Shown here: positions 15,726 through 64,000 of the stretch, one piece after another
How the letters are laid out: the number at the start of each line of letters is the position of its first letter
Position numbering within the stretch: position 1 is the stretch's first letter
NCBI GenBank assembly: GCA_977862235.1
Contig: OZ374560.1
Location: 2,666,001-2,730,000 of the forward strand
Reading direction: 5' to 3'
Source of the DNA: Dudresnaya verticillata
Taxonomy: Eukaryota
Length of the DNA: 64,000 nt
Position numbers and translations under genes: made by a program
The notes under the pieces: model-generated
The model's input: only the letters and a program-made list of their open reading frames with translations
Told to the model about the DNA's origin: nothing
Database searches by the model: none

Positions 15726-15726
15726 C

Positions 15727-17157: not shown

Positions 17158-17648
17158 CGGCCCCCCTCGTAAGACCGAGAGCCCCGCGAGGTCTGAACCG
17201 TCTCTGTGCCACAGTTTCCAATTTGCATTGGCGTTCTGCCAGATTTGTCGGGCCAAAGCCGTTGCAGCGTAACGTTGCGACTGGGACGCCGTCGACGAGA
17301 AGTCCCGCACTCCGAGCCAGCGCTCCAAATAGTGAGCGTATATCAGGGTCTTCACCCGCGGCGTCGCAAGGTGTTTTGCGCCGGTACCCACCCCAACTCG
17401 CGCTCTCATCGCGGCCTCGTCGTCCCCTTTCCTCGAGCACGGGCAGTCCCTTCCTTCCACACTTCCTCAGCGGGTGAGCCTTTTCGGCAATCTCCGAGTG
17501 TCAACGCCGCGCGCGCGTCCTCCTTGCCAACTTGCATCCCCCACGCCGTAGGGATCGCCACCGCGAGTCGACGGTCGCACGACGCTGTCATCCTCGCGCC
17601 TAACGCACATCATCCTCCCCGACCGACCGTCTGGACAAGGCAGCGCCT

Positions 17649-29022: not shown

Positions 29023-29485
29023 CGACCCCCTCCGAAAACGCGACCACGTCAACCTGCTTCAGCCTGCCTGCTTATCCGCATCTGCGTCTCTTCCAGTGCC
29101 GATCTTGTCGGTCACCCGCGTCTTCACGTCTGCGTTTGCCCGCCCTTGGCGTTGGTTGAGCCCCGCCAAAGACGCACGTTCAGTTGCCCATCCGCCGTTG
29201 GCGCAGCAACAACTCCCTTCGAAGACGTGTCGTTGACTAACTTCGCCAGTGGCGTGCGTGAAACCCCGTCGTTTACGTCTTATCTTGTGCAAGCGTGCGT
29301 GCGCTTATCGCCTAGGGCGTTTCTTTGAGTTCCGCATTCGGCGTTGTTCGGTCTAGCGTCGTTGACGTGTGCCTTGTTTTCTTCCGCCTTTGGCGTAGTT
29401 GACTCGACTTCGGAGTCCGAGACCGTCGTTGACGTATCGTGTGAAGTCCGCCAGTGGCGTGTGATTACGCAACGTCTCAGACGTA

Positions 29486-35900: not shown

Positions 35901-37736
35901 CATGGCCTAAATAGTTGACGGTCGGGGTGAAGAAGTCGCACTTGGTCAACTTCAATGTCACCCCGGCCCGATGCAAGGTCGAAAGGATCTCGTCAACATG
36001 ACGGAAGTGACTGTCAATATCGTTCGAGAAGATGATCACATCGTCAAGGTAGAGGAGGCATGAGCGCCACTTGTATCCCGCAAGCAGTATATCGAGGGTC
36101 CGTTGAAACGTGGCCGGTGCGTTAGTGAGTCCGAAGGGCATACGCTTGTAGCGGAACAATCCGGCATGGCACGTGAATGCGGTCTTGTCGGGATCTCGCG
36201 GATTGATGGGCACCTGCCAGTAGCCACTATTGCAGTATAGGGTGGTGAAGACGTTCGCTTCCCCTAGGCTGTCAATACATTCGTCGATTCGCGGGAGAGG
36301 GTACGTATCTCGTACCGTTACCGCGTTCAAGCGACGGTAGTCAACGCAGAAGCGGAGTGTACCGCCCTTCTTGGGAGCGAAGACGACCGGCGACGCCCAT
36401 GGCGATTGTGCGGGTTCGATAACCCCCTGACGCAACATGCGATCCACCTCCGCTTGAGCGAGTTGCCTTTGCTTTGGGCCAGCGCGGTAAGCCGGGGATG
36501 AAATCGGCCTGGAGCCGGGGGGCAAGTCAATATAGTGCTCCGTGGGTGCGATTTATCCTAACGAACCGTCCCACATCGACGAGTACCTGCGCAGCATCTC
36601 CTTCAGCCGTCCTTGATGTTCGGCTGAGAGATGACTCAGGTCCAACTCGTCCACTGACGGAGGTTTCGCTACAGTTGCTTCGATCGACTTAGCGAATGTA
36701 TCCGGCTGTGCCGTTACTCCATCATTCGTTTGAAAACGGAAATCTTGATTCGCCTCTTCCTCCGCTGCCTGTTCCGCGGTGATACCTAGGACATCGGCCA
36801 GACTTATGTGACTGGGGAACACTGCTGTGGGATGTGGCAACGCGGTAGCGACGACTTGTCCTTTGACGAGCGCTTGCGGACGCGGGGAGAAGTTTGCGAC
36901 GAGAATCCGGAACACTCTCAGCGGCTCTAATTGAGCGACCCCGTTAGTAACGGCCAAAGCTTGGCGATCATATAACGTTCCAAACAGTTGGATGGTAATG
37001 ACCCCTGCTCGCTCGGTCGTTACCGAGATCCACTTTTGTGCCTGTGGCGGGATGATTGTTCGTTCTGCAACGCGTATCTTGGGCGACGTTCGTCCGCCGG
37101 CCGTACCCTACTCTTGTTCCGTTGGCAACGGGGGGTACGACGGGGGCCGGCGCAGCGGGCGGCGCGTTATAGGGACACGGGTCCCGTCGTCCAACTCAAT
37201 CTCGCGACTCCGCGGATAAATCGCTTCGACAAAGCGGTCGCAAAAGTCGCAACCGAGTATAACCGGCGCAGCGAGCCGTTCACAGACGATCAACTCCAAC
37301 TTGACAACCCTTCGTCCGAGACGTACGACTAAATCGATAGTGCCCCGGGTCTGAATCGCCTTGTTGTTAGCGTCTGATATGACGGGGAGACTCTTGGATA
37401 CGATCCGTGATCGCGCTTCTAGCGAAATATCGTCAATACGGATGAAATTCGGACCAGCCCCCGTGTCGAGGACAGTGAGTTTACGTGCCAAGGTACCTAC
37501 AGTTACGCCTAGATCGGCGTATACTTTGTAGTTTCTTTTGACCATTACGAACAACTGTCCCAGGGCTTGTGGGGGCTGGTACCTACGCCAGGGGCGCTTC
37601 AAGGACGTCTGTGACGAGTCTACCCGCCCATCGGCGTATTTGTTAACTAGGTTCGGGCCCTCCTTCCGTGTCAGCACCCGAGGCGGAAGCCTCTCTGCTT
37701 GGTGCGACACCCCAGTGTCAGGAGTTGGTACCCTCA
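32998..37736 (-). pseudogene. pol: D pol: PR-RT-RNaseH-integrase-chromodomain (a few frameshifts/stops)
   Basis: LDTGAGPN in ORF 37108-38304; 1074-aa ORF 33301-36525 with YLDD, DAS, HHCC and DDE core; chromodomain EYVIERV..YRVKWFGY..NTWEP (32998-33282). Confidence 0.95.
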
Positions 37737-40288
37737 TTAGTTTTTCGCCTGCGGCGGTTGTAGCGGCGCTGTGTAGCGATTGACCACCGTCGGATGACGT
37801 TCTGCTGCATGCGGCATAGGTCCGCCTCGTGGTGATGGGGGTCGCGCTGCACGGCGTGCTGCTTCGCGCGCCGCGCGTTCTTTGTACCGAGTGTACGCAT
37901 CGGCGGGGACCCCCGCCTTCTCGGCGTCTGTTAAGCCTTCGTAGTTGGCGATCGCTTTCATATACTCGCTCATGCGGAGGAAGCAGTCCGGTGCCATGTG
38001 ACCACGGGCATAACACTGATGACAGATCAACTGTCTGCGAGCGTCTTGACGGAGCGGACCCCTGTCTTGCCAACCTGGCCTCGCCCGATGGACGTGGGGG
38101 GCATACTCCAAGTACGGGACGCGGGCACGACGGAACGCCCAAAGGCGAGTGTAGGATCCATTGCCTCTGTGTCCTCGTCTTCGACGTAGCTGTCCGTTGG
38201 TAACGCTGACGTTGGCACTGATGCTTGTTCATCGGCCAAATAGAGATCGCCATCGGCGTGTGTTTCCATATCGTCCGCATGACGGGTGACATCACGGAAC
38301 TCAACGGAGGTCTCCGCTATCATAGCGCGCGCGGCAGGCTTCGTGCCCCTCGTCTGTTGACGTAGAACCGTTCGGTTGTCGCCAATGGCGGGGCGCAATG
38401 CGCGAGCGGCTTGGGCCGGGGCCAATATATCCCGTCTTACTGACGTCGAGCCGGCCCTGCCGTGTCTTGCGCGTTGCGCGTCACCTTCGTCCTGTGCGAA
38501 GTGGACTAAACGTTCAAAAGATAACTCCGCCCTCGGCGTTTCTTCGCGGAAGCGGGCCACTAAGGACCTGATCGTCGGGTCTAACCCATCGATGTACAGT
38601 GTCATCCTTTCCCATCCGGGATAAACGTTACCGCAACGAATACATGCGCCGGCGAGTCTCATGCCGTAAGTCGTTTCGTCTTCGCCCTGCTTCTGGCTAG
38701 TCGACCGCAGGGCGAGGACAGCGTCTCGAATCGCCGAAGGAGTGGCGTATGTGCGGAGTAGGTAGTGCACCGCCTCCGGGTAAGATGATACGCCGCCGCG
38801 ATGGCGAGAGGATGTCGATTTGACGGAGCGGAATTGCGTGGCTGCCGTGGCCTTTAAGAAGTACGGCAGCGCGACGAACGCTTGTGCTTCACTCATCTCT
38901 AGCGTGTCCGCTTCATCCGCGAACCGCGTTAAGAATTCGAGGACCATGACGGGGTCGCTGCCGTTGAAGGCGGCGTCCTTCATCGTTAACTCGAGTCGCT
39001 TGATATGGTCTTTGACCTTCCCGGTTTCGCGTCCAGAGCGCTTCTGTCCCACGTCTTGGAGACGGTATGTGCGGTACGATAGAAACTGGTCGAAGAGAGG
39101 ATTGGAGGGGCTTAGCTCCTTCAGTCCCTTGTATCGCTTTCCGCGGGGTCGCATTGCACTGCCGTGAGCCACGTTGCCGTCATCGTCTGACGACGAAGAG
39201 TCTGTTGACCCGCCGTCACTAGACGTGTCTGAAGAGGATGAGGATGAGTCCCCTCGTCGGCGACGGTTCTTCTTCCGTCCATGACGCGACTTGCGGCGAT
39301 TCTTGCCCCGTCTTCTGCGATCTTTGCGTCTTCGACGGTCTTCCTCGGAACTATCGTCATCCGACGGCGGCCCTTGGCGCCATTTGGCGGTTTCCAGTCG
39401 CTCTAAGCGGGTTGCCAATCGTTGAAAACGTTCGCGTGAATTCAGTTCCGACTGGGAATGGACCGTCAATGCCGTTGGCTGCTGAGCATCTACCCCTTGG
39501 TTGGGGTTCGTCATCAGACGGTCGAGGTCGGAACGGAGTCCTTGAAGGGCACCGTCCCGATCTTCTTCCAACGTCTGTAGACGGCTGAAGATACCTCCGA
39601 CATTGTCGTCGAGCATCTCCGCGAATCGAGCGAGTAAGTTACCGTCTTCGGCGACGCATACTTCCCGAATCCGCTCGCGAGGTATCGTGAGATTCCCAAC
39701 GCGGGCGGATGCTGGGGACGCCACTGGCGGTGTGCGCGCGGAGGTCGACGCCTGCGGCGGACCTCCCGTGCTGCGCGGTTGCGCTAACGGCCTGGCCGGT
39801 GAACATCCGGCACTGCCGTGGGGTGGGGGGCAGCAGCCCCTTGGGATTGGTGATTCGTCTACGACGTCGCGCCCCGCAGGGCGTTCTTGGTCGTCGTCGA
39901 CGGGTAAGGTTGGTTGGTGGACCGGAACTTCCGGTTGTTCCTCGACGATGTCGGCTTGGGCTCCGTCCTCGACGGGTCGCTGTTCGGCTTGTACCGTGTC
40001 AGCGGAATCCACGTGCGAGTGGTAGGTTCGGAGGGCCGATTCGTTGGGAACGGTGGTGCGGATGACGACGGGTATCGGCGGGGGAGGTATTTCTCCCCTG
40101 TTGAGCGATATATGGGAGTGGTCGTGGCCTGGACCGGTCGGGAAGGCCGATGCGATCTCGGGGCTCACGAGGCGCCCAGACCTCGTTGTCATCCGCTGTA
40201 GCGACCGCTCCGACGCGGGGACACTCCCCGGCGTCGATGACGGTCTTCTTGAACTGGGGCCTCGCGACGGCGGCGGTCGTGAGGCCAT
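37737..40288 (-). pseudogene. gag: D gag (one frameshift near 38110)
   Basis: 753-aa ORF plus 37737-38111 with zinc knuckle CHQCYARGHMAPDC, ending AKN*. Confidence 0.9.
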
Positions 40289-40395
40289 AATGCAGTCGTA
40301 GAGTTGCTTGAACGTCGTGGACGATTAGCGACGGATGTCTAGAGACGGAAGGTCGGACGTCGCACGACGGAGTAACTCGTTGAAACGTAGCACAC

Positions 40396-40413
40396 TTCTA
40401 GGTCGGGAGACCA
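40396..40413 (-). promoter_or_regulatory. Primer-binding site of D
   Basis: TGGTCTCCCGACCTAGAA, 2 nt from the 5' LTR. Confidence 0.9.
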
Positions 40414-40415
40414 GT

Positions 40416-41320
40416 TGTAGTGCAAACGTCGATGACGGACACCGCCGAGCAGTTCGGGGCTCCGTGGGTAGCGACGCCTGCGGCGATGAGTGGCCTCGCC
40501 GTGGGCGTCTGTTGGTAGAGCGGTTGACTCGCCTGGGGCGGACTGTAAACGCCCGAGGCGGAAAAGAAGAACAAAAGAAAACAGAAAGGGAACACGTCGA
40601 GGACGGGTAGAGACGTGAAAGCACGGAGGTAGACGCTTAGCCGTAGGCAGCGGTAGGGTACGCGCGTGCTGAACGGGGAAGTCTGGACCAAGGCCGGCTT
40701 GCCGGGGTTTACTGTGACGTCTGAGACGGATCCACTAAGTACAGGATTTCCTAGCGGCGGCGACGCGGATGTACGCGTAACGCGGGAACTCGGGACACGT
40801 GTTGTCCCGAGGCGCGTCTGACAGATCCGTCCGTCATGCAGCCGCGCTCCTGACAGATCACGCGTAGCTTCCCCGCTCGAGTCCTTACACTTACACGTGG
40901 ATTACTTCCTTGCAGCCGCATGCGCCCCATGGCGCGAGCGATCTCGATCCGCACCAATCCCGATCCAGTCCGGATTCGGGCCAGCGATGCGGATGCGCCA
41001 GGCTTACAGGCGCGTGCCTTACACTCCTTAATCCCGATGTGGGATCCCGATGTGGGATCCCGATTGGATCCGGATTCGGGCCACGCTTACAGCGAACGTT
41101 CCCGCCACTGCGCCATGCGCGTACGCGTGGCGCCGTACAGTGGCCGGGCTCAGGCGTGCGGTCTGCACGCCCAGCAAGCCGTTCTGGCCCAAGTGGGCAG
41201 CGGCATGCGTCGGTGACGTGTTTGCGCCGCGGGCGGGTTGAGCGCGCCGTTGGCGGTCGTCCGTCGGTAGACGCTGCATATCAACGTTTGAAAGCGAAAA
41301 CGGGCCCCCCTGGCACTACA
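40416..41320 (-). repeat. D 5' LTR
   Basis: Repeat of 28114-29022, followed by TSD AATCC. Confidence 0.97.
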
Positions 41321-47406: not shown

Positions 47407-49602
47407 AGCTGCTCCAGCAGGCTGGCAAGGCTGTGGAGGTTGTGACGTTCGACACACCAATCAACTTATCTCCCGCAGTCGAGCTGAAGCAAGGTACAAT
47501 CACCGCGTCTGCGAAGGCTCTTTTCAACATCACTGTCTGCTTGCCATGTGGGCCGCTCCGACTGCGCAAAGTGGAGTTCCTGATCATCGACCAAGACATG
47601 GATGAGGTCCTGCTAGGACGTCCGCTTCTCAAGTGCCTAGGCTTCAACTTAGAGTCACACTTGCAGAAGGTACGAGACAAGTACGACGAAGCGGACATCA
47701 GCGATCTCATGAGCCGCACTGAAGACGACTTCGAGGCCTCCAGTAACTCAGCCAAGACCGCAGCGTTCGCCCCATACATCGGCCTGTGGTATGACCAGGC
47801 TGAGGAAGATCCGATCGAACTGCCGCCCTCTGCAGGGGCCAACATTGGAACAGACAAAGAAGAAGACATCCAGGAAGCATTTAGAAGTATGCTGACGTCT
47901 GCGAAGGACAACGGGATGTCAGCAGAAGGGCTAGCAACAGCTAAACGGATGCTCGACGAGTACAGGGAAATCTTCCGGATTAACCTGGGGGCAGACCCAC
48001 CGGCCAAGGTGGAGCCGCTCAGGATCAAGCTCAAGCCTAACCACCGACCTGTCAGAGCCAAGCAGCGAAGGTACACTCCCAAACAGCACGCCTTCATCTC
48101 TACAGCCGTTCGTGAGCTCAAATCCGTGGGGGCCATTCGTAGCAACTCCCAAGCAAGATGGGCAAGCCCTGCCCTCTCGGTTCCAAAGCCAGGGTCCGAC
48201 AAGTTCCGCTTCACAGTAGACCTACGGGCACCCAACCGGGAAACGATCCCAATCGTATCATCTATGCCTGACCTCGACCATATGATACAGAAAACTGCAG
48301 GCAGCAAGTGCTTCGCAAAGCTGGACATGTGCCATGCGTACTGGCAGATCCCACTTCACGAAGAGTCACAAGAATGCATGTCTATCCAGACACCGCTCGG
48401 GTTGCACACTCCCGTTCGCCTCTTACAAGGGCAGACGGACGCCGGAAACCATTTCCAGTGCGTGACATCTCACATCTTTGTCGAGTGCATCAAGAAGATC
48501 ATTCAGTGGTTGGATGACTTCCTGCTCCACGCCAAACACGAGAAGGAGCTACTGGAAGCCCTGCTGTTGTTCTTCAAGCAGTGTCGCAAGTACAACCTCA
48601 AGCTGCATGCCAAGAAGTGCGAACTCTTCGTGAAGGAAGCAAGCTTCTGTGGGCGTGTAATAGATGAGACAGGTGTTCGCTATAGCCCACGGGAACTAGA
48701 CACCATCCTGGGCATGCGAAAGCCAGAATTCGCTTCCTCCAACAGTTCTTGTGCGCTACGAACTGGATGCGCAAGAGTATCCCCGAGTACTCTAAGACAA
48801 TCGCACCGCTTCACGACCTGATGGAGATTTGCTACGGCAAGGCAAAGAAGCGAACCAAGAAAGCAGTAAAGAACATATCACTGTCTGGACTATGGGGGGC
48901 TACACACAACTCTGCCTTCAGTCAGATTCAATCTCACATAGTCCAGTCAATCAAGCTCGCACATCCTAAGTCAAGCCATAGGCTTTGCCTCTTCACTGAC
49001 GCCTCCGAGACCCATTGGGCGTCTGTACTAACGCAGATACACAGCAACAGATGGATTTGGACGTCGAGGAGCAGGATCACGAGCCCTTAGCCTTTTTATC
49101 TGGATCCTTTACAGGCGCTGCAGCCAACTGGAGTATAGTAGAGAAGGAAGCATTCTCGGTCGTAGAATCTATGACAAGACTCGACCACTTCACAGCGGCA
49201 GGTGAGATCTCATTGTTCACGGACCATGCCAACCTGGTGTACATCTTCGACCCGTACGGAAGGAACCCAGGTATGAGCCGGCACACAGCGAACAAGCTCA
49301 TGCGATGGGCGCTCAAGCTGAGCGCCCATCGATACGTCATCGAGCACCTCCCTGGCGAGCAAAACGTATGGGCGGACATACTAACGCGCTGGGCCGTCAA
49401 GCCCAGAGACAGAGTGAAGTCGGTCAAGCTAGCCAGCCTGTTCTACGCCCCAATTACTCCCGAGACTAACGAAGAGTATGACTGGCCAACTCGTAACGAC
49501 TTCGCTAAGGCTCAGAAGGAAACAACAGAACAACCGCCGCATGGTTTCAGCGAGAAAGATGGAATCATCCAAGACAATGGAGGTGTCTTCTGGCTTCCCG
49601 TA
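47403..49602 (+). pseudogene. pol: E pol, PR-RT-RNaseH part (frameshifted)
   Basis: VLLGRPLL, WASPAL, FRFTVDLR, KLDMCHAYWQIPL, WLDD, LFTDAS, WSIVEKEAF, NVWADILTR. Confidence 0.92.
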
Positions 49603-50366
49603 TGTAGTATGTCTAGAGCACCACCGCGTACGGCAGCCCAACGAGACCCCAAGAAGACCACAAAGACCTGTCGGATTTGACCAAAACTGGCCAGAACGTA
49701 GAACGGACCTGCGCGCCGGTAGCAAGCGTGGTAGAGCGGGAGCGCGCAGACGAAGTCGTGACCAGTATCCGTGATGAGGACGGAAAATGGCCAAGTCGGG
49801 GGTTCAGTTGCTAACTTTACTCCCAACCTCTGGCGGGACGGCTTCGTACCTTTTTCGGCTTAGCCGTAGTGTGTGGCCAGCTAAGTAGGCCCAAAATTGG
49901 CCATCAGAGCTAATCTAGAGCTATTCTACAGTTAGTGGCCGAGGTTACTCCGGTCGGCCATAATATCTACTTGTGTTCCGGCGTCGGGCCAATGTTGTAC
50001 CCTTACCAGACTAAACCAAGTATTTGTTCGTTAGTGGTTGGCCAAATGAGTTAGATTTTCCCTTGATTTTTCCACTGTCTTCCCTTTGATTCACCTTGCG
50101 GCCAAATCCAATTTCCATTTGTGTCCTGGCCGAGAACCGGATCATACGTGTACAGCGGGCCACGTGGTGCGCTTCAGTGTCGTAGGTGGCCACGTGTGAG
50201 CCACGTGTACAGTCGGTGGCCACGTATCATACTTGCGCGCGCTCACCGCCGTCCGCGCGCCGACGGCGCAACTTCATTGGCCAAGTGTCTTCGTTTGGTT
50301 GGGCCGATCGTACAGTTGGCCCGTCGATTTGCTTCCTTTCGGCGGCCCCCTTGCCGTTGCACCACA
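49603..50366 (-). repeat. F 3' LTR
   Basis: Repeat of 62152-62915. Confidence 0.97.
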
Positions 50367-50608
50367 GAGCCCCCTTCGCAAGCGCGGACTCCTGGCCGCG
50401 AGGGTTTCATCTGGCCATATCAGCGCGCGTGATCCGCGCCGCTACCCCTCTCCCTACATCCGGCCATCACCATCTTGCTCACGCTTCACTTCCCCTTACC
50501 AACACTTCCCAACACATCGTGCGCACGCCCGCGCTTCTTGCCAACTTGTGCGCCCTTCCCTCGCTTCGGCCTCCACGTGCGCATCCGGCCAGTCGCTCTT
50601 GATGGCGG

Positions 50609-53600
50609 GTGGCCAAAGCGCGCCCGCGTCGCACAGCATCGGCTAAGAAGAAGACTGTTCGGCCGACCATTTCTTCCAGCTCGTCATCTACACCGCCGTC
50701 GAGCGACGAGGAAGTGGCTGTGGCCAGAGCGAAAGCGACCACGAAGAAGACTGGCCAGACGTCAAGGCCGCGCGCGATGAAGGCGCCTTGGGCATCTTCC
50801 GCCCCAGCACCCAAGACCCCAAGTGGCAAGCCCTTCGATCCGCTAGTTGCTGTAGCCACTACCACAGCGGCGAAGCCCATCAAGACTGGCCAGAAGAAGA
50901 GTGTTGCTGCCTCCGCTACTCCGGTCATGGCGCAAGCGATGCCCGACGTTGGCACCGACAAGATAATGCAGGAGATAGCGGCCATGCAGAAGAGGCGCGA
51001 AGCTGAGGAGCAACAATTGGCCAGTCTGAAGAAGAAACTTGCGGATGCGCAGAAGGCCAAGGTGGTGCGCAGTGTGACCATCGTCGCATCATCTTCATCA
51101 GAGGAGGCAGCGGCGGCAACAGGCCAACTTAAAAGAGGTAAGCCGACAGCGTCTTCTAACGTCGGTCCGCTAGCCAAGGAGACGAAGCAAACTGGCCAAA
51201 AGACAGCAGAAGCGCCTGAGAAAGGGTTGGTACAGGCCGAAGTGAAGCGTCTCGAGGCGAAGAAGTCAATGCCGGCCCCAAACACTTCGGTGCCAACGGC
51301 CATTAATCCGACGCCACCGCCGCTGGCCAGCGCTGTTGAGAAGGCTGTTATTGCCATCTCTCGTCCCCTGGTGGCTCAAGCTACCACTGCAGCAGCTGAA
51401 GAAGTAGCTGCGGCTCAACCCGAGGTTGCCGATTCGGCCATGGTATTCGTGCCCGCTCGAGAAGAACCACTGACCAGCAAGCAGGAGTTACCTGAAAAAG
51501 TTGAGAAGGTTGGGCCAGAGCAGAAGAAAGGAGACAAGTTGGGGCAGAAGGCTGCAGAAGCTTTGGCCAATATTCCTGTGCCACGCAAGTCGTCGCGTTC
51601 GGCCACTCCGAGCGCTTCAAGGAAATCCACGCCGCGACTACGTTCGGTGCCTTCGCCTTTCATGCCGACGGCTGCGAGTCGTGCGCGCGAGCTGGTCAAG
51701 TTAAACATCGGCAAGCCCGCTGTTCAGGGTCCTCCCACAAAGAAGCAGCGGCTGCCGCCTAAGGAAGTTGACCAGACACCTCGCGACTAAGTTATCGACG
51801 TCGATGCTTCTACACCAATCCCACCGGCCAATCTTATGTCAGACGGCGATCGTCGTCGCTTTGTGGCCTTGCTCCCCGACGCCGATGAGCTTAAAACTGG
51901 CCATTCTTCGTCTACGCCTTCTGTAGGCGTGCAGCCCAAGTCATCTGGCCAGGTTGAAGATCCTCGCGCTATGGAAGTTACTCCGCGTGAAGAGACCTTA
52001 GATATTACCAAGACTGGCCAGAGTTCAAGTGCTGGCCCCTCTGCTCCTACTCATCCGGATCAGGAGCCGGCTTCGCATAATCGTGCTGCCGTGCCTTTCC
52101 GCTGCGACATTCCGCCGGGACTAGAAGATCATGATGGCCCCGAATTAGTTTTGGATGAGCGATTGCCTGGGACTTCCATCTGGCCAACGCGTCCTCGAGT
52201 GGATATTCCTTATGCCGAGTTGGTGGCCAATAGTGACAAGCTGGACATGATCCGCGTGCGAGAAAGCAATTGCCCTCTCAACGAGGCGTGGCATCAATAT
52301 CGCAAATCGCATGACAATGGCCATCTCTACTGGATCCCTTCGAAGATTGAGTGCGACCGTGCCTTCTTGCTGTGCGCGCAAGTCGTGATGTTCGTCCACG
52401 GGGCTTGGCTGATGTTCAAGGGCAAGTCTAATGTGTACCCTCATACGTCCACATGGTATTACGCCTTCCCTTACGCGTGGATGCTTGAGCGCTGGGAGCA
52501 GACGACCGTGCGAAACGCGAAAATGGCCAGTACAGACCTTCGTCGCATCATAGCGCCGGGAGATTGGCTGGCCCATCGCACGGGTGGTAGCTATGTCTAC
52601 CACGGCAGCACTCGTGGCCAAGAAGGTTTTTGGCCCCCTTTCGAATACTTCCCTAGCGTTCCCGCTTTTCTCTGGAGGGAGTGGCCATCGAAAGGAGAAG
52701 CTAGTCTACTTAGCCCGCTGGCTTATTATTTTGTTGGCCAGTATCGTCGTCGTGCGCTCGACCCCACCTGGGTTGAGTGCTTCCAAGAAACCGCTGTCAT
52801 AGAGTTGCACATAATGGCCAGCATCTTCTTCCGCTATGAAGCACAGGCGTCGAAGAGAATGTGGTGGATGTCTTCTCAGGCCATTGCTCGACGAGTGGAA
52901 GTGGTGAAAGATCTTACCTACCTCCCCGTCAGCCAGGAGCATCAGCATCAGTTCAATCATGTATATTGGCCAGATGTTGTGTCGCTGTATGAGAAGTTGG
53001 CCGACACCGTGCGGCACCGGGACCATTTGTTTCAACGCAGGGCTGGCCATGATGAGAAGTATTGCGGTTTCGACTGGAACAAACAAGTGACCTTTCGGCA
53101 TGGCAGTAGCTTTGGAGTTGAAGTGGCCAACGACGCTTCCATCGTGCGGGCCAGCATCTTGCATCCTCATCCGCATGTGGTGGCCGAACTTTCTGTGCGT
53201 GGCCATGTTAACCAAATGTCTTTCGCCAACGTCTTGCGGCAGCTGGACCAGAGCTTTGGCCGCCTCAGCGATACAAAGCGTGGCCAGACCGATGAACTCA
53301 ACCGCGTTCGTCGTCATGTTGATGAAATGGAAGAGGTAATCAGGCGGGGTGAAGAGCGGTTGGCCAATATTAGAAGGCAGAAGGACCAAGTCGAGGCCGA
53401 ATTGCAGGCCACAAAGGAGACGTTGGCCAGATCTAACGAGCAGGGTCTTGAGTGGAAGAGGCAGCGCGATCGCTGGTGCGATGAGACGCACAATCAACAG
53501 GCCTTACTTGACATGGAGCGCAATCGTGGATTTCATCAGCTGGCCAGTTTGCGCGCAGCTTATGCGCCCTCCGTCTTTGGCCAGATGCCTCAGTTTCCTC

Positions 53601-53980
53601 TGTCTTCCTTGCCTACGCCTGCGCCGGGTATGCCGCAATATCCTGGGGTCTCAGTGGCACCGGCCACAACCCCCACGCCATCTCACGCTGGGGACATCAG
53701 CAGTCATCCACGTGCGCCGTCTCGACCGGCCGATTATCAACCAGAGCCAACTCGTCCGACTTTGTCGGCTCCGCCGACTCCTGTGGCCAATGTTGCTCAG
53801 CCTGGCCAGGTCCCTGGAAGCTTATCTCTGCCGGCCACTTCGCCTTTTGTGACGCCGCCAACCGTCCCTGCGACGGCCCCTCGTGTCCCCGCGACAGCGC
53901 CTCGTGCGCCTTCGCAGTCAAGGAGCAGAGAGCCCTATGCTTCGGGTTCTCCTCGCTCACCAAGTCCTTATGGCCGTTAG
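50609..53980 (+). CDS. F antisense accessory protein (about 1120 aa with one in-frame TAA at 51788-51790)
   Basis: ORFs 50609-51790 and 51836-53980 share a frame and are separated only by one stop (RD*VIDVDAS). Basic Ala/Lys arm, Trp/Tyr-rich core, coiled coil, Pro-rich tail. Confidence 0.8.
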
Positions 53981-54894
53981 TTGTCAAGGTGTTGGATTAG
54001 TAGTTGGCCAGCTCGTCTTGTGCTCTTATGCTGGCCAATGAGTTGTTGTTAGTCTTGTGATTTCCTGTGTCTTGTGTTTGCGTTATCAAAAGTTGGTGAC
54101 CAGGTTAGTGCTTCTAAGGCGGGACAGCCCCCTTGTCTTTGGGGGTTAAGTCTGTCCGGCCAGTCTTGAGTTAAAGTGCACTGGTTGCCTTCAAAAATGT
54201 TGTGTGTTATCGTGGCCAGTTACTAGTCAAATGGGGCCGTATGGCCTTTGTTAGTCCGGGTAGTAGACCTTGCTTCTGGCCAATGCTCATGAGCACAGCT
54301 GGAAAAAACGGGGTTAAGGGAGTTAGTGGTTAAGTCAAAACACAAAAATGGCCAGTGCGAGTGGTGGGGTGAAGTGGTCTTGATGCGGGGCTACCTCCCT
54401 CAAGGCGCCGAAGGAAGAGCAATGGCCAGCTATTGTCTTCGTCTCATCAGCCTCAAGCTCCTCATTTGGCCATGTCTTCTTCTCTGGGCCAATTTCCTTC
54501 TTGTTGTCGGTAGGGGGTTATCGTCACTCCCCCTGTCCTCTCATTCTGCGCAAACCCCCGCTTGGGAGCACGACGCGTGGGAATTAGAGTTACCTGGAAA
54601 AGGCAGCAAAAGATGAGGTAGTTTCTACCGTCCATTTACACCCACTGAATTTTGGCGTACACCGGGAGATTTGCTGGCCGCAACTTTCTCACACATGATT
54701 GGCCAGCTTACATTATTCTGGGTTAACCCTAAACACCACCGTCGTGTTTTTGGCGGCGAGGTTCCAGCCGGGGTATTTCGTCACCCAGCATCTCCCTCCT
54801 CCGTCCACAACCACCCCGCATCTCCGTCTTCACAAGTTTTTGGCCAGACTCTGACTCCTCTCGCTTGACTTCCCTGGCCATGTCGAAGTTGACC

Positions 54895-57800
54895 TCACGA
54901 ATTGTTTTGGCCCGGCGTAGCTCGGCGCTTCATGCGCGCGAAGAAGCGCGACACCAACGTGGCTGGCAGAAGAACCTCGGGTTCCCATGTTCGGCCATTA
55001 TACCCATACCACTTGACCTGAAACCACCGTTGGCCAGTCGAATCCTCGCGCATATCCGTGAGCTTGTCAATGACATATTCCTCGGCCGACGCAGCAACTC
55101 CTTCAGGAAGGTTTCCCAATGCGGCACTGGCCAATGTTTCCGTAGCCATCGGTTGCCCCTGTGGCCTGGGTGCGGCTACTACTCGGTCCGAGCTAACACG
55201 CTCCAGTTGGCCAGCTCTGTCGATGACGAACGTACGGCCATCATTGCTTATAATTTTGTATGGCCCCTGGGCATGATGCTCTAGTTTTTTTGGCTGCTTT
55301 TCTGGGTTGTCCAGAAAGACAAACCCTCCAGCGGCCAGTATCTTATTCCCCGTTCTAACCGAGCGGTCGAAGTCCTTCTTGTAGCGCGCTTGTGTGCGAG
55401 TTAAACTGGCCGAAGCTTTATCCACGGCCTCTGATAATCGGCGCAAGAACGCTTCCTTCACAGTCCCTGTTGGCTTTGGCCGGTTTAACGTAGCTTCGAG
55501 TGAGAAGGGACTCGGCGGCCGACTGAGAACCAAGTCAAACGGCGTGGTTCCAGTGGAGCGATGTATATGGCAATTATAAGCATACGTCAATGCCGCAGCG
55601 TATTCATCCCAGTCAGTCTGGTGCTCATTCACGTAGCTCCTCAGCATCGCGGCCAGTGTTCGATTGTACCTTTCTACCTGGCCATTTGTTTGTGGATGAT
55701 ATGTCGTTGTGAAGATGTTGGCCACCTGTAATTGTCGGCAGACTGCCTGGAAGAACTTGGCCGCAAACTGCCCACCGTTGTCAGTAAGAACTGTCTTTGG
55801 TGCACCGTACTTGAAAATCCAGTGAACGCAAAACGCCGTGGCCACATTATAGGCGGTTATCTTCGTCAGAGGCACCACCTGAGTCAACTTCGAGAAGCGG
55901 CATGTAATGACTAATATGTGCTCGAACCCCTTCTTAGTTTTGGGGAGGGGCCCGAGAAGATCCATGGCCACACTCTCTAATGGTTGACTGGCCGGGAAAA
56001 GCTGTAACTTCGATGTATGTCGGAGACGACGAATCCGGTTTTTGGCGCAATGGCCACAGTTCCGAACCGTAGCTAGACAGTCAGCGGCCATGTGCGGCCA
56101 ATAGTATGTCCGTCGAAGGGTCTGATACATTCGATTCTGGCCAGGGTGACCTGCCAGAACGGCATGATGGCACAACCGAAGAATCCGGCCATGCAACGAA
56201 GCTGGAAGCACTATTTGTTTTCGGCCATCTGTCGGACAACGTCTGTAGAGGACCCCATCAACCCCTTCGAAGAAGAGAGGTTTCTTGGGTCGTCCCAGGC
56301 CAGCTCGCGTGGCGAGAATGGTCTGGCAGAAGTCATCGTTTTTCTGGCCCTCTATTATTTCAGTCTGTGTTACTGGTGTTGGGAGAGTCTCTGCTGTCTT
56401 CCCTTCCATTTGTGCACGACTGAAAACTTCCGCTCGGCCATAGTCCGTATAATCGGCCATCAAATGTTCCTCCTCCCAGGCGTCGACATCATCGTCCCGT
56501 TCTCTCCTGTCGGCCATATTAGTTTCTCGATTTCTCCGGGCCCGCGTGGTCGTGAGAATAGAGGGGGTACCGTCCAATACAGGTACAGTATCATCTATTG
56601 GCCGTGCATCTCCGCTCTCTTGCGGGGCGACCAAGCGGGACAAGGCATCGGGGACTTGGTTCTTACGGCCCGGTTTATACTCAATCACAAAGTCGAACTC
56701 GGCCAGACGTAATCTCCATCTTGTAAGACGGCCAGACGAATCAGTGAGCGACATCAACCAACGGAGGGCATCATGGTCCGTACGGACTGTGAACTTGGTA
56801 CCTTCAACATATGGCCATAATGATGTAATTGTCCACACCACTGACAAACACTCGCGCTCAGTGGCCGAATAGTTTTTCTCGGCCGACGTAAGGGAACGAG
56901 ACCAATATCCCACGGGGTGGTACGTCTCGTCCTCTTGTTCTTGGAGCAAGACGCATCCAATCTGGTATGCGCTGGCATCAGTCTCGATCACATATGGCCG
57001 GCCGTATCTAGGTAAGGCCAGAATCGGCGGCGAGACGAGAGCAGCCTTCAGTTTCTCGAAGCTCTGACGTTGTTCCTCTGTTGGCCGTTCGAAGTCTGGC
57101 TCGGCATCCTTGCACAACATGCGCGTAAGTGGCCGTGCGATACTGGAATATTTGGCCACAAATCTTCGGTAGACATTGCAAGCTCCCAAGAAGGACCGAA
57201 GTTCTGTAAGGGATCCTGGAAACTCGGCTTCTTGTATTGCCTTGGTACCCTGCATGGCCATACTTAGTTTTCCGGGGGTCACTACATGACCCAGATAATC
57301 TACTTTGGCCTGAAAGAAAGAACACTTCTTCAACTTCAACGTAATGCCGGCCGCCTTCAACAAGGTTAAGACCTCGTCTAGATGGCCAAGATGATCCTCC
57401 ACATTCTTGGAGAACACGATGACATCGTCCAGATAGATGAGGCAGATCTGCCATCGGACACCAGAGAGAACTATGTCAAGCGCGCGCTGAAATGTGGCCG
57501 GTGCGTTCTTCAAGCCAAATGGCATTCGATTGTACCTGAATGTTCCCAAGTGAGAGGTGAAGGCCGTCTTATCCTTGTCCTCCTCGGCCACTGGTATTTG
57601 CCAATATCCGGAGTTACAGTCCAAGGTTGAAAACACGGCCGCATCCCCAAGGGAGTCTATGCAATCGTCCATGCGCGGGAGCGGGTATGCGTCACCAACT
57701 GTCTTCGCATTGAGTCGGCGATAGTCGACACAGAAGCGGAGGGTGCCATCCTTCTTCGGCACCATGACAATTGGCGAGGCCCATTCTACGTGCGATGGCT

Positions 57801-59314
57801 CTATAACTCCGGCCTCCAACTGCTTCTTAATATCGGCCTCTGCGATCGCGCGTAACGCTGGACCCTGTCGATAGGGCATCGCTCTTATTGGCCGGGTTCC
57901 ATCTTCCAAGTCTATCCGATGTTCGGTGGCCATGATCTGTCCCAAGGAACCGTCCCACATTGCACTGTGTTTCTCTAGGATGGCCATTATCTTTTCGCGT
58001 TGTTTCTTGTCCGGAATATGATCAAGTTTGATCTTATCCCGACATTCTTGTGCCTATTGTCTAGGTACCTTTGGTTCCGAAGGCTCACCTCTTTCTTGGC
58101 CAGATTCTTCTACTTCTACTTGACTACTATCCTGATCCACATGTGGAGTAAGCCCAAGTACACTGGCCATATTCTCCACACTCCGTCCGTGTGGCGTCAG
58201 GATTGCCATGGGGTGGCGGACGGCATAGCCGACCACGGTACCCTTTGGCAGTAAGACATCCCTTCTTCCCCAGTTGGCCAGCATTACCTGGAATGGTTTC
58301 TGCGGCCGAACCTCGGCAACTCCATTGGCCATCCGCGCATGGTGTCGAAAGCTCAAAGAATGTTTGGGAATGTTTGGGTTCCAACACACATAACCCTCGG
58401 CCATCACTGCGAACAGACACGGTGGCTTGTTGACCAGCCCGTATGGTCAGACCTTTCGTCAAGCGTACAGTGGCCGCGTAGTGTCGCTGTGTCTTGCGCT
58501 CCGTACTGGCCGGATTGGAATTACCCGGAGGCGGGGCTCCCTTCGCAGCGGTTGGCTCTGCCCCCAGAGCCATCGAAGTGCTGTCGGGTAACAAAGGAAG
58601 GACGTCACCGCGCACTAGGTGCACGGTCTGTCCAAGGCACTGAATGGTATCCACGTGCATGTTCAGAAACGCCGTACCCAACAAAACGGGTACGGCAAAG
58701 CGAAGGTCGGCGATAAGGAACGGCACTCGATATGAGTGACGTCCTAAGCGCACGACCAAGGAAACGGCCCCTCTAAAATGAATCGGCCGTTGGTTGGCGT
58801 CCCCCAGAAGAGGAGGTGATGTCAACGTAAGTGCGTTGTCCTTCCAATTGGGAGGCAACGCATCCAACCGGATGATGTTCCAACTCGAGCACGTGTCTAA
58901 GACAATTGGCCCGGGTAACAAGGCGGACAGAGTGAGTCCGAATGAACCCGAAGGGGTATAGTTGGCCCCACCCAGGATGCAGACCATACCTTGTGATGAA
59001 ACACTGGCCAGTTGGGATTCTTCTTTCTGTTCGTCGTTCGATGATTTGCAGCCACTCTTTGGCAAAGAACCCCCATTGTTTGTGGGGGTGGATGATGATG
59101 TAGTATGGCCAGACCTCCAGGGCGGTGACCACACTAGACCGTTTGATGAAAATGGGCAGTGGTAGGTCAAATCATGGGTTGACCAAGCCTGGATTGGCGT
59201 TGCCATACGCCATGCAATGGCTAACAAAGAAGAAAAATGGAGATGACTAAAAGGAAATAACTTAACTGAAACGAGACTAGCCGGTTTTGGGACGTGTACG
59301 GGCAACGGGATCAC
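54895..59314 (-). pseudogene. pol: F pol: PR-RT-RNaseH-integrase-chromodomain (disrupted between PR and RT)
   Basis: ORF 58127-59314 (LDTCSSWN, VLLGTAFL), ORF 58054-58407, and an intact 1030-aa ORF 54895-57987 (YLDD, TDAS, HHCC, GPY, EYVIDK..VKWYGY..TWEP). Confidence 0.95.
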
Positions 59315-59334
59315 GACCGAAGATCTCGGCCCGG

Positions 59335-61674
59335 CTAGTTTCCCGATGCCAACGAAGAATTATCGGACTCCATATCGGCCACCACTTCATCCAATGGATG
59401 TTCTTGCGTAGTGACTAACGTGGCCTGCCGATTCCCACGGTTCGAAGATGATTGTTGTGGCCGTCGGAGTATTCCCTGAGGGGGAGGGCGTCCCCTTCCA
59501 TCCCCAAAGGAGACATTCCTTTGGTCGGGGCGGTAGCCTCGACCACCTCGGCCAGCAAACTGTTCGGGGTGCCATCTAGCGAATTCATCTCGGAAGCGGA
59601 AGTTACGTATGGCAAACAAGTTCCTGATGGCCAGTGGTAAGTACACACAAGTGTACAAATCATGGCCCCATTCGCGACAACCCCAACAACGGGCACTGGT
59701 TTTGTCACTGCGTAGCATAATAGCGACTTTGGCCAGCTCATCCGACGTTAACGTCGGAGGTTTCCGGAGTGGGTCCGGGGTATTACCCCCGGACACCGAC
59801 CCTGCAGGTGACGGCGTGGTCGGCGTGATCGTCGGTGTTTGCTGAGCACCATTCTGGCCAGGGGTAATGGCCATAACCGGTATGGTGTCAAACGGATCAT
59901 CATAGTTGGCCGCTATATCCTCGGGCTCCGCCTGCCAAGCAGGTTCGGCCGCAAGGGTAGGGATGACCAACGCACTTCGAGAACTGGCCGAACTTGTTTT
60001 GGGACGTGCAGAAGCCAAGTAGGCTCTGTGTGTCTCCCCTTCGTCGATGGCGATACGGCGCACCGTCGAGAAGTCCTTCTCCTCCGGCCGCATCTGCATA
60101 AGTTTCTCAGCTACGGCCGAACGAGTGGTCGAAGGTAAACCCCTCACATAATGGTTGATCAGGGTGTTCTCCGAGAAGACATCGGCGCACGACAGCGCCG
60201 CATCCCCCAACCGGTCGGCGAATTCTGCTTCTGTCTCGGTGTCTTTCTGTTTGCTTCTGGCCACTTTGTCGAACGCAGCGGCCAGAACATCTTCGGTGCA
60301 GTAGCGCTTGATGAGAGCGTGGACTAAGTGTGGCCAGCTGATTTGTGAAAATCCACTCATCGGAAAGATGGAGTGTACTGACCTTATACCACGGGACACC
60401 CGGCCAGAATAGAACCTCTTCGCATCACCGGCCGTAAAGAAGGCCAGAAGACGCAAAGCGGCCCCTTCGTGGACGTTTGTCCCGTCACAGGCATCCTTGA
60501 ACTCCTTGAGGAAGGACAGGAGCTCAATCGGACGTCGGCCATCAAATGGGTTCATCTGCGGGAACAAGTTCCGGATTTGGCGAGTCATCCGGGACAAGCG
60601 CCGCGCATCCTCCATAGTCATCGTTGGCCGAGTATCCAACAGGCGGTGGGTTCGGTAGTCCACCACCCGTCGGAAGGGTTCTTGGAGGGTCTTGAGAGGC
60701 TCTAGACCTGGTTCCATTGGCCCCATCATCGCGACAGGAAGACCTGTTTCATCCAACTGGCCAGTGTATCCCATGGAAGGTTCCCCTGCATCAACTGGCC
60801 CCGAAGGTCCAACTAAAGCAGGCCGTGGGGCGGCACCACTGTTCTGAGTGTTGCCCTCTTGCGGTGGTACCCCTTCTCCAGGAATATTTGGCCGAGCCTT
60901 GTCAGGATGCGACAAGGATGTTATCTCATCTTGCAACTTATCCAGTTGCTTCTGCACTGCTGCTACCGGTTCACCCACCTGCGGTGCCAAGACTGGTAGG
61001 TTGGCCGGTGTTATCCGAGCGGACTCGGACCTTGTCTGGCCAGGAGGAGCAGGGAGTTTCCCCTTCCCGTCGGAAGAGAAAACGGCCTTCTCAACCTTTT
61101 CCAGACGCTCATCATAACGTTCTGCTATGGCCGTAAGTGCACCGTCTAGAATGACGGAGTGTATCTCCTGGCGAAGCTGCTGGTCCCTAATCAGAGCCGT
61201 GGTGGACATCTTGACTTGCATCTCGCCAAACTGGTTCTTTACCTCTTGCTGCCACTCGGCCGTACGTCGCTTATACTGGTAGAACTCTTGCCGGCCCAAC
61301 CAAACGTCGTGTTCTGGCTGGGAATCATCATCAACTGGAGGTGGACGAAGATTGGCAGGAGCGGCCAGCGGGGTCATCGGCGGCGCTGTGGCCGCCGGTG
61401 GCGTGCGCCATGGCGAGACCGGTGGGGCTGTCCGCGGCAGTGCCTCATTACGGACGGCACCTGCTGTGGAAGCTGACCCTGCTCGTCCAACTGTCGGAGG
61501 AATGAACTGGCCAGCCGATAACGGGGCCGGAGGAGCTGGTGTTGGCCCCGATAACGGTGGATACAGGCCAGGAGCAGGGGGTGGGCCTATGGGAGCTCCC
61601 AACGTGGAGGGAGGCGGAGCCGAGTCTTGTAAGGACTGCGGTTGTCCGCCTGCCTGTGAAGAAGAAGAAGACAT
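59335..61674 (-). CDS. gag: F gag (779 aa, intact)
   Basis: DYRTHRL, WPHLVHALIKRY, zinc knuckle CWGCREWGHDLYTC; ends in G GGA AAC TAG. Confidence 0.9.
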   Translation of the reverse strand: MSSSSSQAGGQPQSLQDSAPPPSTLGAPIGPPPAPGLYPPLSGPTPAPPAPLSAGQFIPPTVGRAGSASTAGAVRNEALPRTAPPVSPWRTPPAATAPPMTPLAAPANLRPPPVDDDSQPEHDVWLGRQEFYQYKRRTAEWQQEVKNQFGEMQVKMSTTALIRDQQLRQEIHSVILDGALTAIAERYDERLEKVEKAVFSSDGKGKLPAPPGQTRSESARITPANLPVLAPQVGEPVAAVQKQLDKLQDEITSLSHPDKARPNIPGEGVPPQEGNTQNSGAAPRPALVGPSGPVDAGEPSMGYTGQLDETGLPVAMMGPMEPGLEPLKTLQEPFRRVVDYRTHRLLDTRPTMTMEDARRLSRMTRQIRNLFPQMNPFDGRRPIELLSFLKEFKDACDGTNVHEGAALRLLAFFTAGDAKRFYSGRVSRGIRSVHSIFPMSGFSQISWPHLVHALIKRYCTEDVLAAAFDKVARSKQKDTETEAEFADRLGDAALSCADVFSENTLINHYVRGLPSTTRSAVAEKLMQMRPEEKDFSTVRRIAIDEGETHRAYLASARPKTSSASSRSALVIPTLAAEPAWQAEPEDIAANYDDPFDTIPVMAITPGQNGAQQTPTITPTTPSPAGSVSGGNTPDPLRKPPTLTSDELAKVAIMLRSDKTSARCWGCREWGHDLYTCVYLPLAIRNLFAIRNFRFRDEFARWHPEQFAGRGGRGYRPDQRNVSFGDGRGRPPPQGILRRPQQSSSNRGNRQATLVTTQEHPLDEVVADMESDNSSLASGN

Positions 61675-61740
61675 GACGAAGTACTTCGGAGACTGATTGG
61701 CCAGATACTTCTAGCGATTCGTGGCCACCCCGTGGCCGAC

Positions 61741-61920
61741 GTGTGCAAAGTGGCCTTCCTGGGAACCACACTGTCGTGTGCAAAACACAGGGGTGGGAAC
61801 GGACGATTCCGAGCTAATAGTCCCTATACTAAGGGCCGGACACTGCCGTGTGCAAAGCTCCCTGTGCTGGGAACGAACCAGCGAGTGTGCAAAGTGGCCA
61901 ACCTGGGAACGAACCAAGCG
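61741..61920. repeat. Four GTGTGCAAA...TGGGAAC units in the F 5' leader
   Basis: Units start at about 61741, 61776, 61848 and 61885. Confidence 0.8.
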
Positions 61921-62132
61921 ACGGGTATCTGGCCTGTGACCTAGACTGTGGCCACAGAAACGGGTTGAAGTAAACTGACAATCAGATTGCGGAACCGGGT
62001 AGTTACTAACCCGCAATCTGCAACTTGCGGGGTTTGGCCACCACAGTAGCGAGGAAGAAACTGGCCGTCGTCGACTACGGCCAGCTACTCGAGTCTTCTA
62101 ACGGAGAATTACGGCCGAAATCACAACTGATC

Positions 62133-62150
62133 TTCTAGGTCGGGAGACCA
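62133..62150 (-). promoter_or_regulatory. Primer-binding site of F
   Basis: TGGTCTCCCGACCTAGAA, 1 nt from the 5' LTR. Confidence 0.9.
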
Positions 62151-62151
62151 G

Positions 62152-62915
62152 TGTAGTATCTCTAGAGCACCACCGCGTACGGCAGCCCAACGAGACCCCA
62201 AGAAGACCACAAAGACCTGTCGGATTTGACCAAAACTGGCCAGAACGTAGAGCGGACCTGCGCGCCGGTAGCAAGCGTGGTAGAGCGGGAGCGCGCAGAC
62301 GAAGTCGTGGCCAGTATCCGTGATGAGGACGGAAAATGGCCAAGTCGGGGGTTCAGTTGCTAACTTTACTCCCAACCTCTGGCGGGACGGCTTCGTACCT
62401 TTTTCGGCTTAGCCGTAGTGTGTGGCCAGCTAAGTAGGCCCAAAATTGGCCATCAGAGCTAATCTAGAGCTATTCTACAGTTAGTGGCCGAGGTTACTCC
62501 GGTCGGCCATAATATCTACTTGTGTTCCGGCGTCGGGCCAATGTTGTACCCTTACCAGACTAAACCAAGTACTTGTTCGTTAGTGGTTGGCCAAATGAGT
62601 TAGATTTTCCCTTGATTTTTCCACTGTCTTCCCTTTGATTCACCTTGCGGCCAAATCCAATTTCCATTTGTGTCCTGGCCGAGAACCGGATCATACGTGT
62701 ACAGCGGGCCACGTGGTGCGCTTCAGTGTCGTAGGTGGCCACGTGTGAGCCACGTGTACAGTCGGTGGCCACGTATCATACTTGCGCGCGCTCACCGCCG
62801 TCCGCGCGCCGACGGCGCAACTTCATTGGCCAAGTGTCTTCGTTTGGTTGGGCCGATCGTACAGTTGGCCCGTCGATTTGCTTCCTTTCGGCGGCCCCCT
62901 TGCCGTTGCACCACA
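62152..62915 (-). repeat. F 5' LTR
   Basis: Repeat of 49603-50366, followed by TSD CCGTA. Confidence 0.97.
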
Positions 62916-63531
62916 CCGTAGACAGCGGTCTGCTGCGCTTACGTGTGTTCATCGCCGCACACACCGGACGAGGAGGACACCGCGGTATCGCACCGACTAA
63001 GGCAATCGTGCGCGAACACTTCCGCTGGACGTCAATGGCTAAGGACGTGGAGGCATTCGTGAAAACGTGCCTGCATTGCCTCTGCACCGCGTCAGGAAGG
63101 ACAATCCCGAGACCCATGGGGTACAGTCTACATGCCGACGGTCCTAACAAGATCTTGCACTTCGACTTCTGCTACATTGGCAAGAGCGACAAGGCGTTTC
63201 TGTACGTGCTGATCCTGAAGGACGACTTTAGCTCCTTCGGTTGGCTTTTCCCTTTCGAGGCCGCAGACGCCTCGTCGACAGTGGACGCCCTGATGGAATG
63301 GTTCTCCTCATTCGGGGTCGTCCTACAGTGGGTATCCGACCGGGGACCCCATTTCAAGAACGAAGTCGTAGCAGGACTCAGCAAGAAGCTGCGAGGCTCT
63401 CAACACTTCACACTCCCATACTGTCCATGGACTAATGGTACAATAGAGGTGGTTTGCCGGGAACTTATGCGCGTTCTTAGAGCCCTCACGTCTGAGTTCC
63501 AAATACCTTTCAAGTCGTGGCGGTCCGTGCC
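62916..63531 (+). pseudogene. pol: E integrase (HHCC and DDE core), 3'-truncated
   Basis: AHTGRGGHRG..CLHC, LHFDF, SDRGPHF, PWTNGTIE in ORF 62735-63556. Confidence 0.9.
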
Positions 63532-64000
63532 AGTCTTTGAAAGACACAGAGCCTAAGGGAAAAGGGGGAAAAGGGGCGGCGCCACCCAGCTCGCACAGAG
63601 CAACCGTCGTGTGGAGGCAAGGCTCGTAAAGCACCTGAAAGGGAGGTTACGGTGAGTCCGTGAATTCCAAAAAAAGGGTAAAGACCCGAAACCCACCGTG
63701 GGTTCTATTCAGGAGGCCCCTGCTACTCAGGGGCCTATTAAGTATGCAGAGCCGAAAATGCTCTTACCTCCTATGAGCTATTCTAAGCGATTCTAACTGT
63801 CATTATTAATCTAATTGTACTGTTGTCAGTTATAAATACGGATGAGTTGTAGTACCGCGTCGGGACGCGTGAGCGGCCACAATAAATTACCCAATGGCAA
63901 TTTGCCATCAGTTTTGGTGCCAGCAGGGACGCCAGCGAGGCGCATCGCCCTTACAGCGCACGGTGCTTGTGCGCGCCTTACAGCTTGATGCGCGTGGGCG
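63532..64000 (-). repeat. Third A-family LTR, lacking its first 107 bp and running off the window
   Basis: Near-identical to the A LTR from 4361 onward (AGTCTTTGAAAG..). Confidence 0.95.

Follow-up and report, generated by a model that had tools for sequence, protein, structure and literature searches.

Within a 64,000-nucleotide stretch of the Dudresnaya verticillata genome (contig OZ374560.1, positions 2,666,001 to 2,730,000 of the forward strand; hereafter the window), a Gypsy long terminal repeat (LTR) retrotransposon, element F (49603-62915, minus strand, 13,313 bp), is tiled with the short palindromic motif YGGCCR. This tiling is real and specific to the element, it is an artefact of neither codon usage nor repeats, and its sites show the geometry of binding sites. 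The LTR retrotransposons of the window are nested in one another, and F is inserted within the pol region of another of them, element E.

The dispersed array (49688..62915) contains 178 sites at a mean spacing of 76 bp, which corresponds to 13.4 sites per kb of F, compared with 66 sites in the remaining 50,687 bp of the window (1.3 per kb). TGGCCA is the most frequent form (93 sites), followed by CGGCCA (36), TGGCCG (33) and CGGCCG (16). With one LTR removed, TGGCCA occurred 84 times, while 4.6 occurrences are expected from the dinucleotides of F itself. A preliminary description of this DNA, made from the sequence, had reported saturation of the LTRs, gag, pol and the antisense gene; indeed, all ten sub-regions of F carry 8.6-18.1 sites per kb. 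The hand counts of 8 TGGCCA in 53041-53640 and 10 YGGCCR in 56401-57000 were exact, with base-shuffled means of 0.18 and 0.71, respectively. That the sites are mostly TGGCCA is correct for the element as a whole (52%) but not for pol (15 of 46). The target-site duplication (TSD) CCGTA flanks the element at 49598..49602 and 62916..62920, and the density steps sharply at both copies; a missing step, which the preliminary description had named as contrary to its claim, was not observed. The flanks formed by element E are sparse in sites, as had been described, with 3 in 7,235 bp on the left and 0 in 616 bp on the right. Several sources of the motif were considered and rejected. The 11 tandem arrays found with TRF lack it, which excludes tandem-repeat amplification, and only a weak bias in the site flanks was seen, which excludes a longer dispersed repeat. 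No known structured RNA was matched in Rfam (0 matches), and general CpG decay was rejected based on a CpG observed/expected ratio of 0.92 and on 430 TGG/CCA compared with 385 CGG/CCG outside the sites.

Codon usage was excluded as a cause by synonymous-codon shuffling (1000 shuffles per open reading frame, ORF). In F pol, 46 sites were observed compared to 14.9 ± 2.9 after shuffling (maximum 24), in gag 29 compared to 8.0 (maximum 18), and in the antisense 3' ORF 30 compared to 9.3 (maximum 17). All ORFs of F were enriched over their codon usage, whereas YGGCCR was at shuffle expectation in eight ORFs from other elements of the window. Of the positions in F pol where a synonymous choice could create the motif, 65% were realised, compared with 0-15% in other elements. 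The motif was found in all three codon phases and within conserved coding DNA, the reverse transcriptase (RT), RNase H and integrase cores carrying 10-19 sites per kb. The excess thus persists after synonymous shuffling, is present in all frames and outside coding DNA, and changes abruptly at the TSDs, so the earlier claim that the constraint acts on nucleic acid (DNA or RNA) rather than on protein could be upheld. The protein is nevertheless shifted: motif-compatible dipeptides amount to 8.0 per 100 amino acids in F pol and to 3.4-6.6 in all 120 listed homologues, and in the columns aligned with the top 40 homologues F has 7.8 compared to 5.0 ± 0.64 (maximum 6.7). At near-invariant columns, F departs from the consensus in 2 of 220 cases, one of which touches a motif.

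The motif was compared with 80 related loci (75 metagenomic and 5 viral), which are not the nearest relatives of F; the metagenome scan covered 6 of the 64 parts of the collection. In the 78 loci of 2 kb or more, YGGCCR did not exceed 5.8 per kb. Across 69 pol regions used for comparison, 66 of them from the loci and three from window elements, the z-score of YGGCCR ranged from -2.3 to 2.5 compared with 10.2 in F, and the best 5- or 6-mer reached a z-score of 5.8 compared with 9.4 in F. A rule by which each family carries its own motif was rejected, as no comparable word was present in the 78 loci scanned whole or the 69 comparator pol regions. Another idea is that the F lineage evolved in a genome generally rich in YGGCCR and was then transferred. 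The density step at the TSDs is as for a recent immigrant, and the LTRs are 99.5% identical. However, F groups with the metagenomic proteins P0001 and P0040 as its nearest relatives (FastTree support 0.99), within one large clade that also holds the other relatives and without a long branch, and these two proteins lack the dipeptide shift. Moreover, among 80 viral loci picked for clusters of TGGCCA, none was above 9.3-fold and none was like F, and an 18-fold excess of a hexamer with a spacing shadow (see below) would still need a cause. Such an import is therefore considered very improbable.

The sites avoid each other at short range. Only 5 of 164 gaps were shorter than 18 bp, compared to 24.9 ± 4.2 under non-overlapping random placement and 22.7 ± 3.3 under random choice among the synonymous opportunities. 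Where a site lay within 18 bp, synonymous opportunities were realised in 6 of 43 cases, and elsewhere in 116 of 185 (P=5e-9). At 6-17 bp from a site, GGCC was found 15 times, where the host background predicts 16.6 and the average of F 66.6, indicating that the force that creates sites does not act in the immediate vicinity of one that is already there. Weak sites follow this shadow as well (5 of 56 compared to 18.5 expected), and near-matches to the core are also scarce within it (31 compared to 50.5). Among the window elements and the loci of at least 5 kb, the shadow was unique to F, with a log10P of -14 and a next value of -3 among the best 25 listed.

Outside the shadow, a rhythm was observed. 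For distances between sites in the range of 17-48 bp, the maxima lie at 19, 24, 29, 34 and 39 bp, and a six-value set comprises 27 of the 62 pairs, where 11.6 are expected. The best period is 4.95-5.1 bp, which is about half a helical turn (scan-corrected P of 0.005-0.007, also with codon phase kept). Independent distances from weak to strong sites repeat the rhythm with a similar phase (R=6.1), and four separate regions of F have the phase in common (2.5-3.0 of 5.25). Of all 4-mers in F, GGCC is the top one for a period of ∼5 bp (R of 10.4, the next being 5.0). The rhythm is probably real in F, though not settled. When loci L001-L075 were pooled, a faint spacing signal of ∼5.25 bp was also seen among flanked GGCC pairs, its phase resembling that of F and L026 being the strongest.

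The form of the motif points to the molecule in which it is read. GGCC is invariant at the core, whereas the outer bases follow a graded order (T>C>>A,G) that resembles an additive binding matrix, and the outer base on the 5' side does not depend on that on the 3' side (chi-square P=0.95). No strand bias was detected, the mirror forms TGGCCG and CGGCCA occurring 31 and 34 times. Non-coding DNA has a T:C ratio of 58:14 at the outer bases, and pol has one of 55:37. Other perfect palindromes are not enriched in F (AGGCCT 1, GGGCCC 1-2), and in predicted RNA accessibility the sites do not differ from control words on either strand (P=0.35 and 0.55). Strand symmetry, independent half-sites, unenriched other palindromes, ordinary RNA accessibility and a spacing near half a turn together favour double-stranded DNA as the level at which the motif would act. 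The pattern fits a symmetric protein that would read double-stranded DNA and argues against self-pairing of RNA. In an RNA-level function, the self-complementary hexamers would pair genomic RNAs of F for dimerisation or packaging. The motif is indeed palindromic, close site pairs are rare, and palindromes have been proposed, in silico according to the cited excerpt, to drive homotypic RNA clustering (PMC13079385). Yet pairing should correlate the outer bases and enrich AGGCCT and GGGCCC, neither of which was seen; CGGCCG, which should pair most strongly, is the least frequent form, the wobble-compatible form is not preferred on the genomic strand, and the sites are as accessible as control words. 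A function in RNA pairing is hardly credible on these grounds.

The sites might also have accumulated without any function, by a mutational drive in which a GGCC-type methylase and biased short-patch repair ratchet near-matches into sites, in a manner like that discussed for cyanobacterial HIP1, until a site lies within the repair patch. Such a ratchet predicts local saturation, as stated in section 3.4 of the HIP1 proposal (PMC4390886), and a few minor observations are in line with it. YGGGCR/YGCCCR are depleted in 49603-62151 (10 compared to ∼30-38), with the other one-mismatch core classes near expectation; one of the four differences between the LTRs (49761 versus 62310) is a TGGCCA/TGACCA pair; TGACCA/TGGTCA occur 12 times in F where ∼6.5 are expected, which faintly suggests changes of the inner C; and the T:C ratio of the outer bases fits independent C-to-T change. 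However, a host process should hit the neighbouring elements A-E as well, which it does not, and transition neighbours are not drained overall. No methylase-like domain was found by Pfam in the ORFs of F, general CpG loss is absent, and a rhythm of half a turn is unexpected from repair. Altogether, a ratchet of this kind is regarded as unlikely.

A candidate for the binding protein is encoded by F itself. On the plus strand, opposite to the other genes of the element, an accessory gene extends over 50603..53980 in a single frame that carries 43 YGGCCR and, in this copy, one in-frame stop (51788-51790). The protein consists of a basic low-complexity N-terminal part, a globular domain, a predicted coiled-coil stretch and a proline-rich tail, the coiled coil being suggested by sub-threshold matches to coiled-coil Pfam families together with the sequence. 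Among 1.84 billion representatives, the globular part has three relatives (E 4e-10 to 8e-4), two of which continue beyond it with a comparable helical stretch and proline-rich tail. In HHalign, the profile of these relatives aligns over 83 columns (86%, pairwise E 5e-6) with an antisense family that was seeded from element D of the window. This D-seeded family was found in 27 of the 75 related metagenomic loci, in 26 of them with the match on the strand opposite pol. The unnamed domain of ∼200 amino acids, for which neither Pfam nor the PDB gave a match, is a widespread accessory domain in the Gypsy clade (the 27 loci lie among L002-L073), and within the window it is present at 29465-30703 (plus strand) and also at 4976-6349 and 17604-19417, the copies in elements B and C matching weakly. 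Word-indexed protein searches with the antisense protein of F found none (one of them covering 1482-4230 amino acids only). A sequence search of the PDB returned nothing significant, Foldseek gave 0 matches, ESM Atlas gave no usable match, and prokaryotic genomes yielded no relative. The best Z obtained with VIA was 4.4, and both AlphaFold models were too weak to support a fold (pLDDT 55.5 and 37.9).

We tentatively propose, at slightly less than an even chance, that YGGCCR was built up by selection as sites for a symmetric DNA-binding protein, probably the antisense protein of F, which would coat F and keep its copies active. In a first step, which the site geometry makes quite probable, a dimer-like protein would bind each site on double-stranded DNA and cover ∼18 bp, so that a second site within this footprint gives no gain, and neighbouring sites would be favoured at certain helical angles. 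Given such a binder, the balance would tip slightly towards the antisense protein of F, which would account for the restriction of the motif to F. In a third step, for which the chances appear even and which is drawn by analogy with VANC and TnpA (see below), the benefit would be that the element is shielded from host silencing over its entire length; alternatively, it would lie in coating of the reverse-transcribed DNA. In its boldest form, which we regard as doubtful, the whole genome of F, RT and integrase codons included, would have been rewritten into a lattice of binding sites, in phase with the helix, for the antisense protein of the element itself. The outcome would be a self-coating, element-specific chromatin that would shield every copy, and both the footprint of the protein and its favoured angles would be readable from the sequence.

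Several observations weigh against this proposal. The chief difficulty with the antisense gene as the source of the binder is that carriers of the D-seeded family lack a comparable motif, although one would be expected in them under a general rule of the VANC type: the 27 loci have 3.0 YGGCCR per kb compared with 2.6 in the others, and element D likewise lacks it. The divergent version in F would therefore need to have gained specificity, or to depend much more strongly on the motif. A direct profile search of F alone against the D-seeded family was not significant, and no Pfam family, DNA-binding families included, was above threshold for the antisense ORFs of F or for 15 family members. With respect to the rhythm, the range of 17-48 bp was picked after viewing the data, and the signal fades past about 55 bp. 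The pooled controls have a weaker signal of similar phase, with an amplitude of 0.11 compared to 0.30 and 29 of 39 non-independent loci positive, which may stem from shared homologous sites or from a faint clade-wide effect; other 4-mers reach an R of 12-19 in these controls. When substitutions forced by the motif were tested residue by residue, the results were borderline (P=0.05-0.06), with no effect in conserved columns (P=0.43), suggesting that the protein changes fall mainly at tolerant positions. Finally, the analysis covers a single copy of F.

Some of these points would be accommodated by a symmetric DNA-binding protein encoded by the host, such as a transcription, insulator or demethylase-recruiting factor, that is recruited by F alone. 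The shadow, the rhythm and the symmetry are explained equally well by such a protein, and it fits both the antisense-gene carriers that are free of the motif and the faint same-phase signal of the controls. However, the window has five further LTR elements, none of which uses the motif, and a 6-bp site occurs by chance at ∼1.3 per kb, so that specificity would need density. A host binder is accordingly judged somewhat unlikely.

The remaining anatomy is that of a Ty3/Gypsy element, presumably similar to Gypsy elements of red seaweeds. Paired LTRs of 764 bp with TG...CA ends and 4 mismatches lie on the minus strand at 49603..50366 (3' LTR, 12 YGGCCR) and 62152..62915 (5' LTR, 13 YGGCCR), enclosed by the TSD. 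From the 5' LTR, the minus strand continues with the leader (61711..62151, 8 sites), a gag-like ORF (59335..61710, 29 sites) and a protease-region ORF (58127..59359, 10 sites) that is out of frame with its neighbours in this copy. Both ORFs lack Pfam matches; the assignment as gag is suggested by position and that as protease by position and sequence. Pol (54895..58053, minus strand, 46 sites) has the Pfam order RVT_1, RT_RNaseH, Integrase_H2C2 and rve, as in the RT-RNase H-integrase arrangement of Ty3/Gypsy elements, and a putative C-terminal chromodomain (PF00385, E 9e-4, 19.5 bits, under the cut-off of 25.1), a domain that is found in many of the homologues. Pol is separated from the antisense gene by a non-coding spacer (53981..54894) with 12 sites, 10 of which are TGGCCA. 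A different word, GCGCGC, occurs 15 times in 49603-62151, where the rate seen in the other elements would give 4.8; 5 copies are in the LTR, and it does not obey the shadow.

Other parts of the window are occupied by young nested LTR elements at 4252-16371, 16558-42367, 28114-41320 and 63532-64000, with LTR pairs 97-99% identical; element D is inserted in element C, and a third copy of the LTR of element B begins at 63532. Element D (28114-40415) has a mild excess of CGTC/GACG (290 compared to 209) and a CpG observed/expected ratio of 1.31; this excess has no shadow and disappears in pol after synonymous shuffling. Word excesses of other kinds were noted among the loci: GACGTCA/TGACGTC occurs 22 times where 0.7 is expected in L080, a distant locus of the viral collection; GGATATA has 5-8 copies in L001, L002, L048 and L049, where fewer than 0.5 are expected; and L037, a contig with a related pol, contains 16-22 copies of the telomere-like repeats CCCTAA/AACCCTA.

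Short motifs that accumulate within one family are known from plant transposons. For VANC of the Arabidopsis VANDAL elements, the cited excerpt describes family-specific motifs that accumulated in the own elements as non-coding tandem repeats (PMC5735166), and TnpA of Spm/CACTA binds terminal motif clusters (bioRxiv 10.64898/2026.08.24.746577). F resembles the former in that a short family-specific motif is found inside one transposable element family with an accessory gene and density would give specificity, and it would resemble the latter, in which dense clusters of motifs in cognate families are bound by a factor that the element itself encodes. The VANC motifs, however, are 8-9 bp long, non-palindromic as quoted, non-coding and in tandem, whereas that of F is a dispersed 6-bp palindrome (PMC5735166). 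VANDAL elements are Mutator-like; F is an LTR retrotransposon in which the motif is as dense in RT, RNase H and integrase as in the LTRs. For TnpA, motifs of 7-10 bp at the termini of a DNA transposon are described in the cited part of that work, whereas F is covered from LTR to LTR (bioRxiv 10.64898/2026.08.24.746577). Element F thus shares the accumulation of a family-specific short motif with these systems but not the placement in non-coding tandem repeats or at termini, and is therefore not filed as a member. VANC21 is predicted, in an atlas of Arabidopsis transposable element products, to homodimerise via a coiled coil (PMC13547354).

HIP1 is likewise a hyper-abundant palindrome that is found in and between ORFs independent of frame, and selection and repair drive compete as its explanations, as far as the cited excerpts go (PMC4390886, PMC5861425). 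HIP1, however, is genome-wide at ∼1 per kb with a periodicity of 10-90 kb, whereas the motif of F is confined to one element at ∼13 per kb with an 18-bp shadow (PMC4390886, PMC5861425), and a general over-representation was not found in the window, with 1.3 per kb outside F. In the plant Gypsy elements Retand and Grande, as in F, an accessory ORF lies antisense between pol and the 3' LTR, and a regulatory role through DNA binding has been proposed for it; according to the excerpt, Retand has TRP28 antisense ORFs, is a non-chromovirus and carries tandem arrays, whereas F has dispersed tiling and lacks PF04195 (PMC11963269). PF04195 (TRP28) was not detected in the antisense ORFs of F at E<=0.1. 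No description of motif tiling in a retrotransposon was found in the open-licence PMC and bioRxiv literature searched. New here are the independent half-sites without strand bias, the shadow of ∼17 bp and the spacing rhythm of ∼5 bp.

Even under a host binder or biased repair, an 18-fold, family-restricted excess of a palindrome with a shadow is unusual. For the proposed protein, the sequence predicts YGGCCR as the site, with T preferred, a footprint of ∼18 bp and favoured spacings of 19, 24, 29, 34 and 39 bp. If the proposal is true, sequence-specific self-protection, so far shown for plant DNA transposons, would extend to class I elements, and a retrotransposon that pays with amino-acid changes for end-to-end cover would imply far stronger selection. 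It would also provide a first candidate function for a widespread, unnamed antisense accessory gene.

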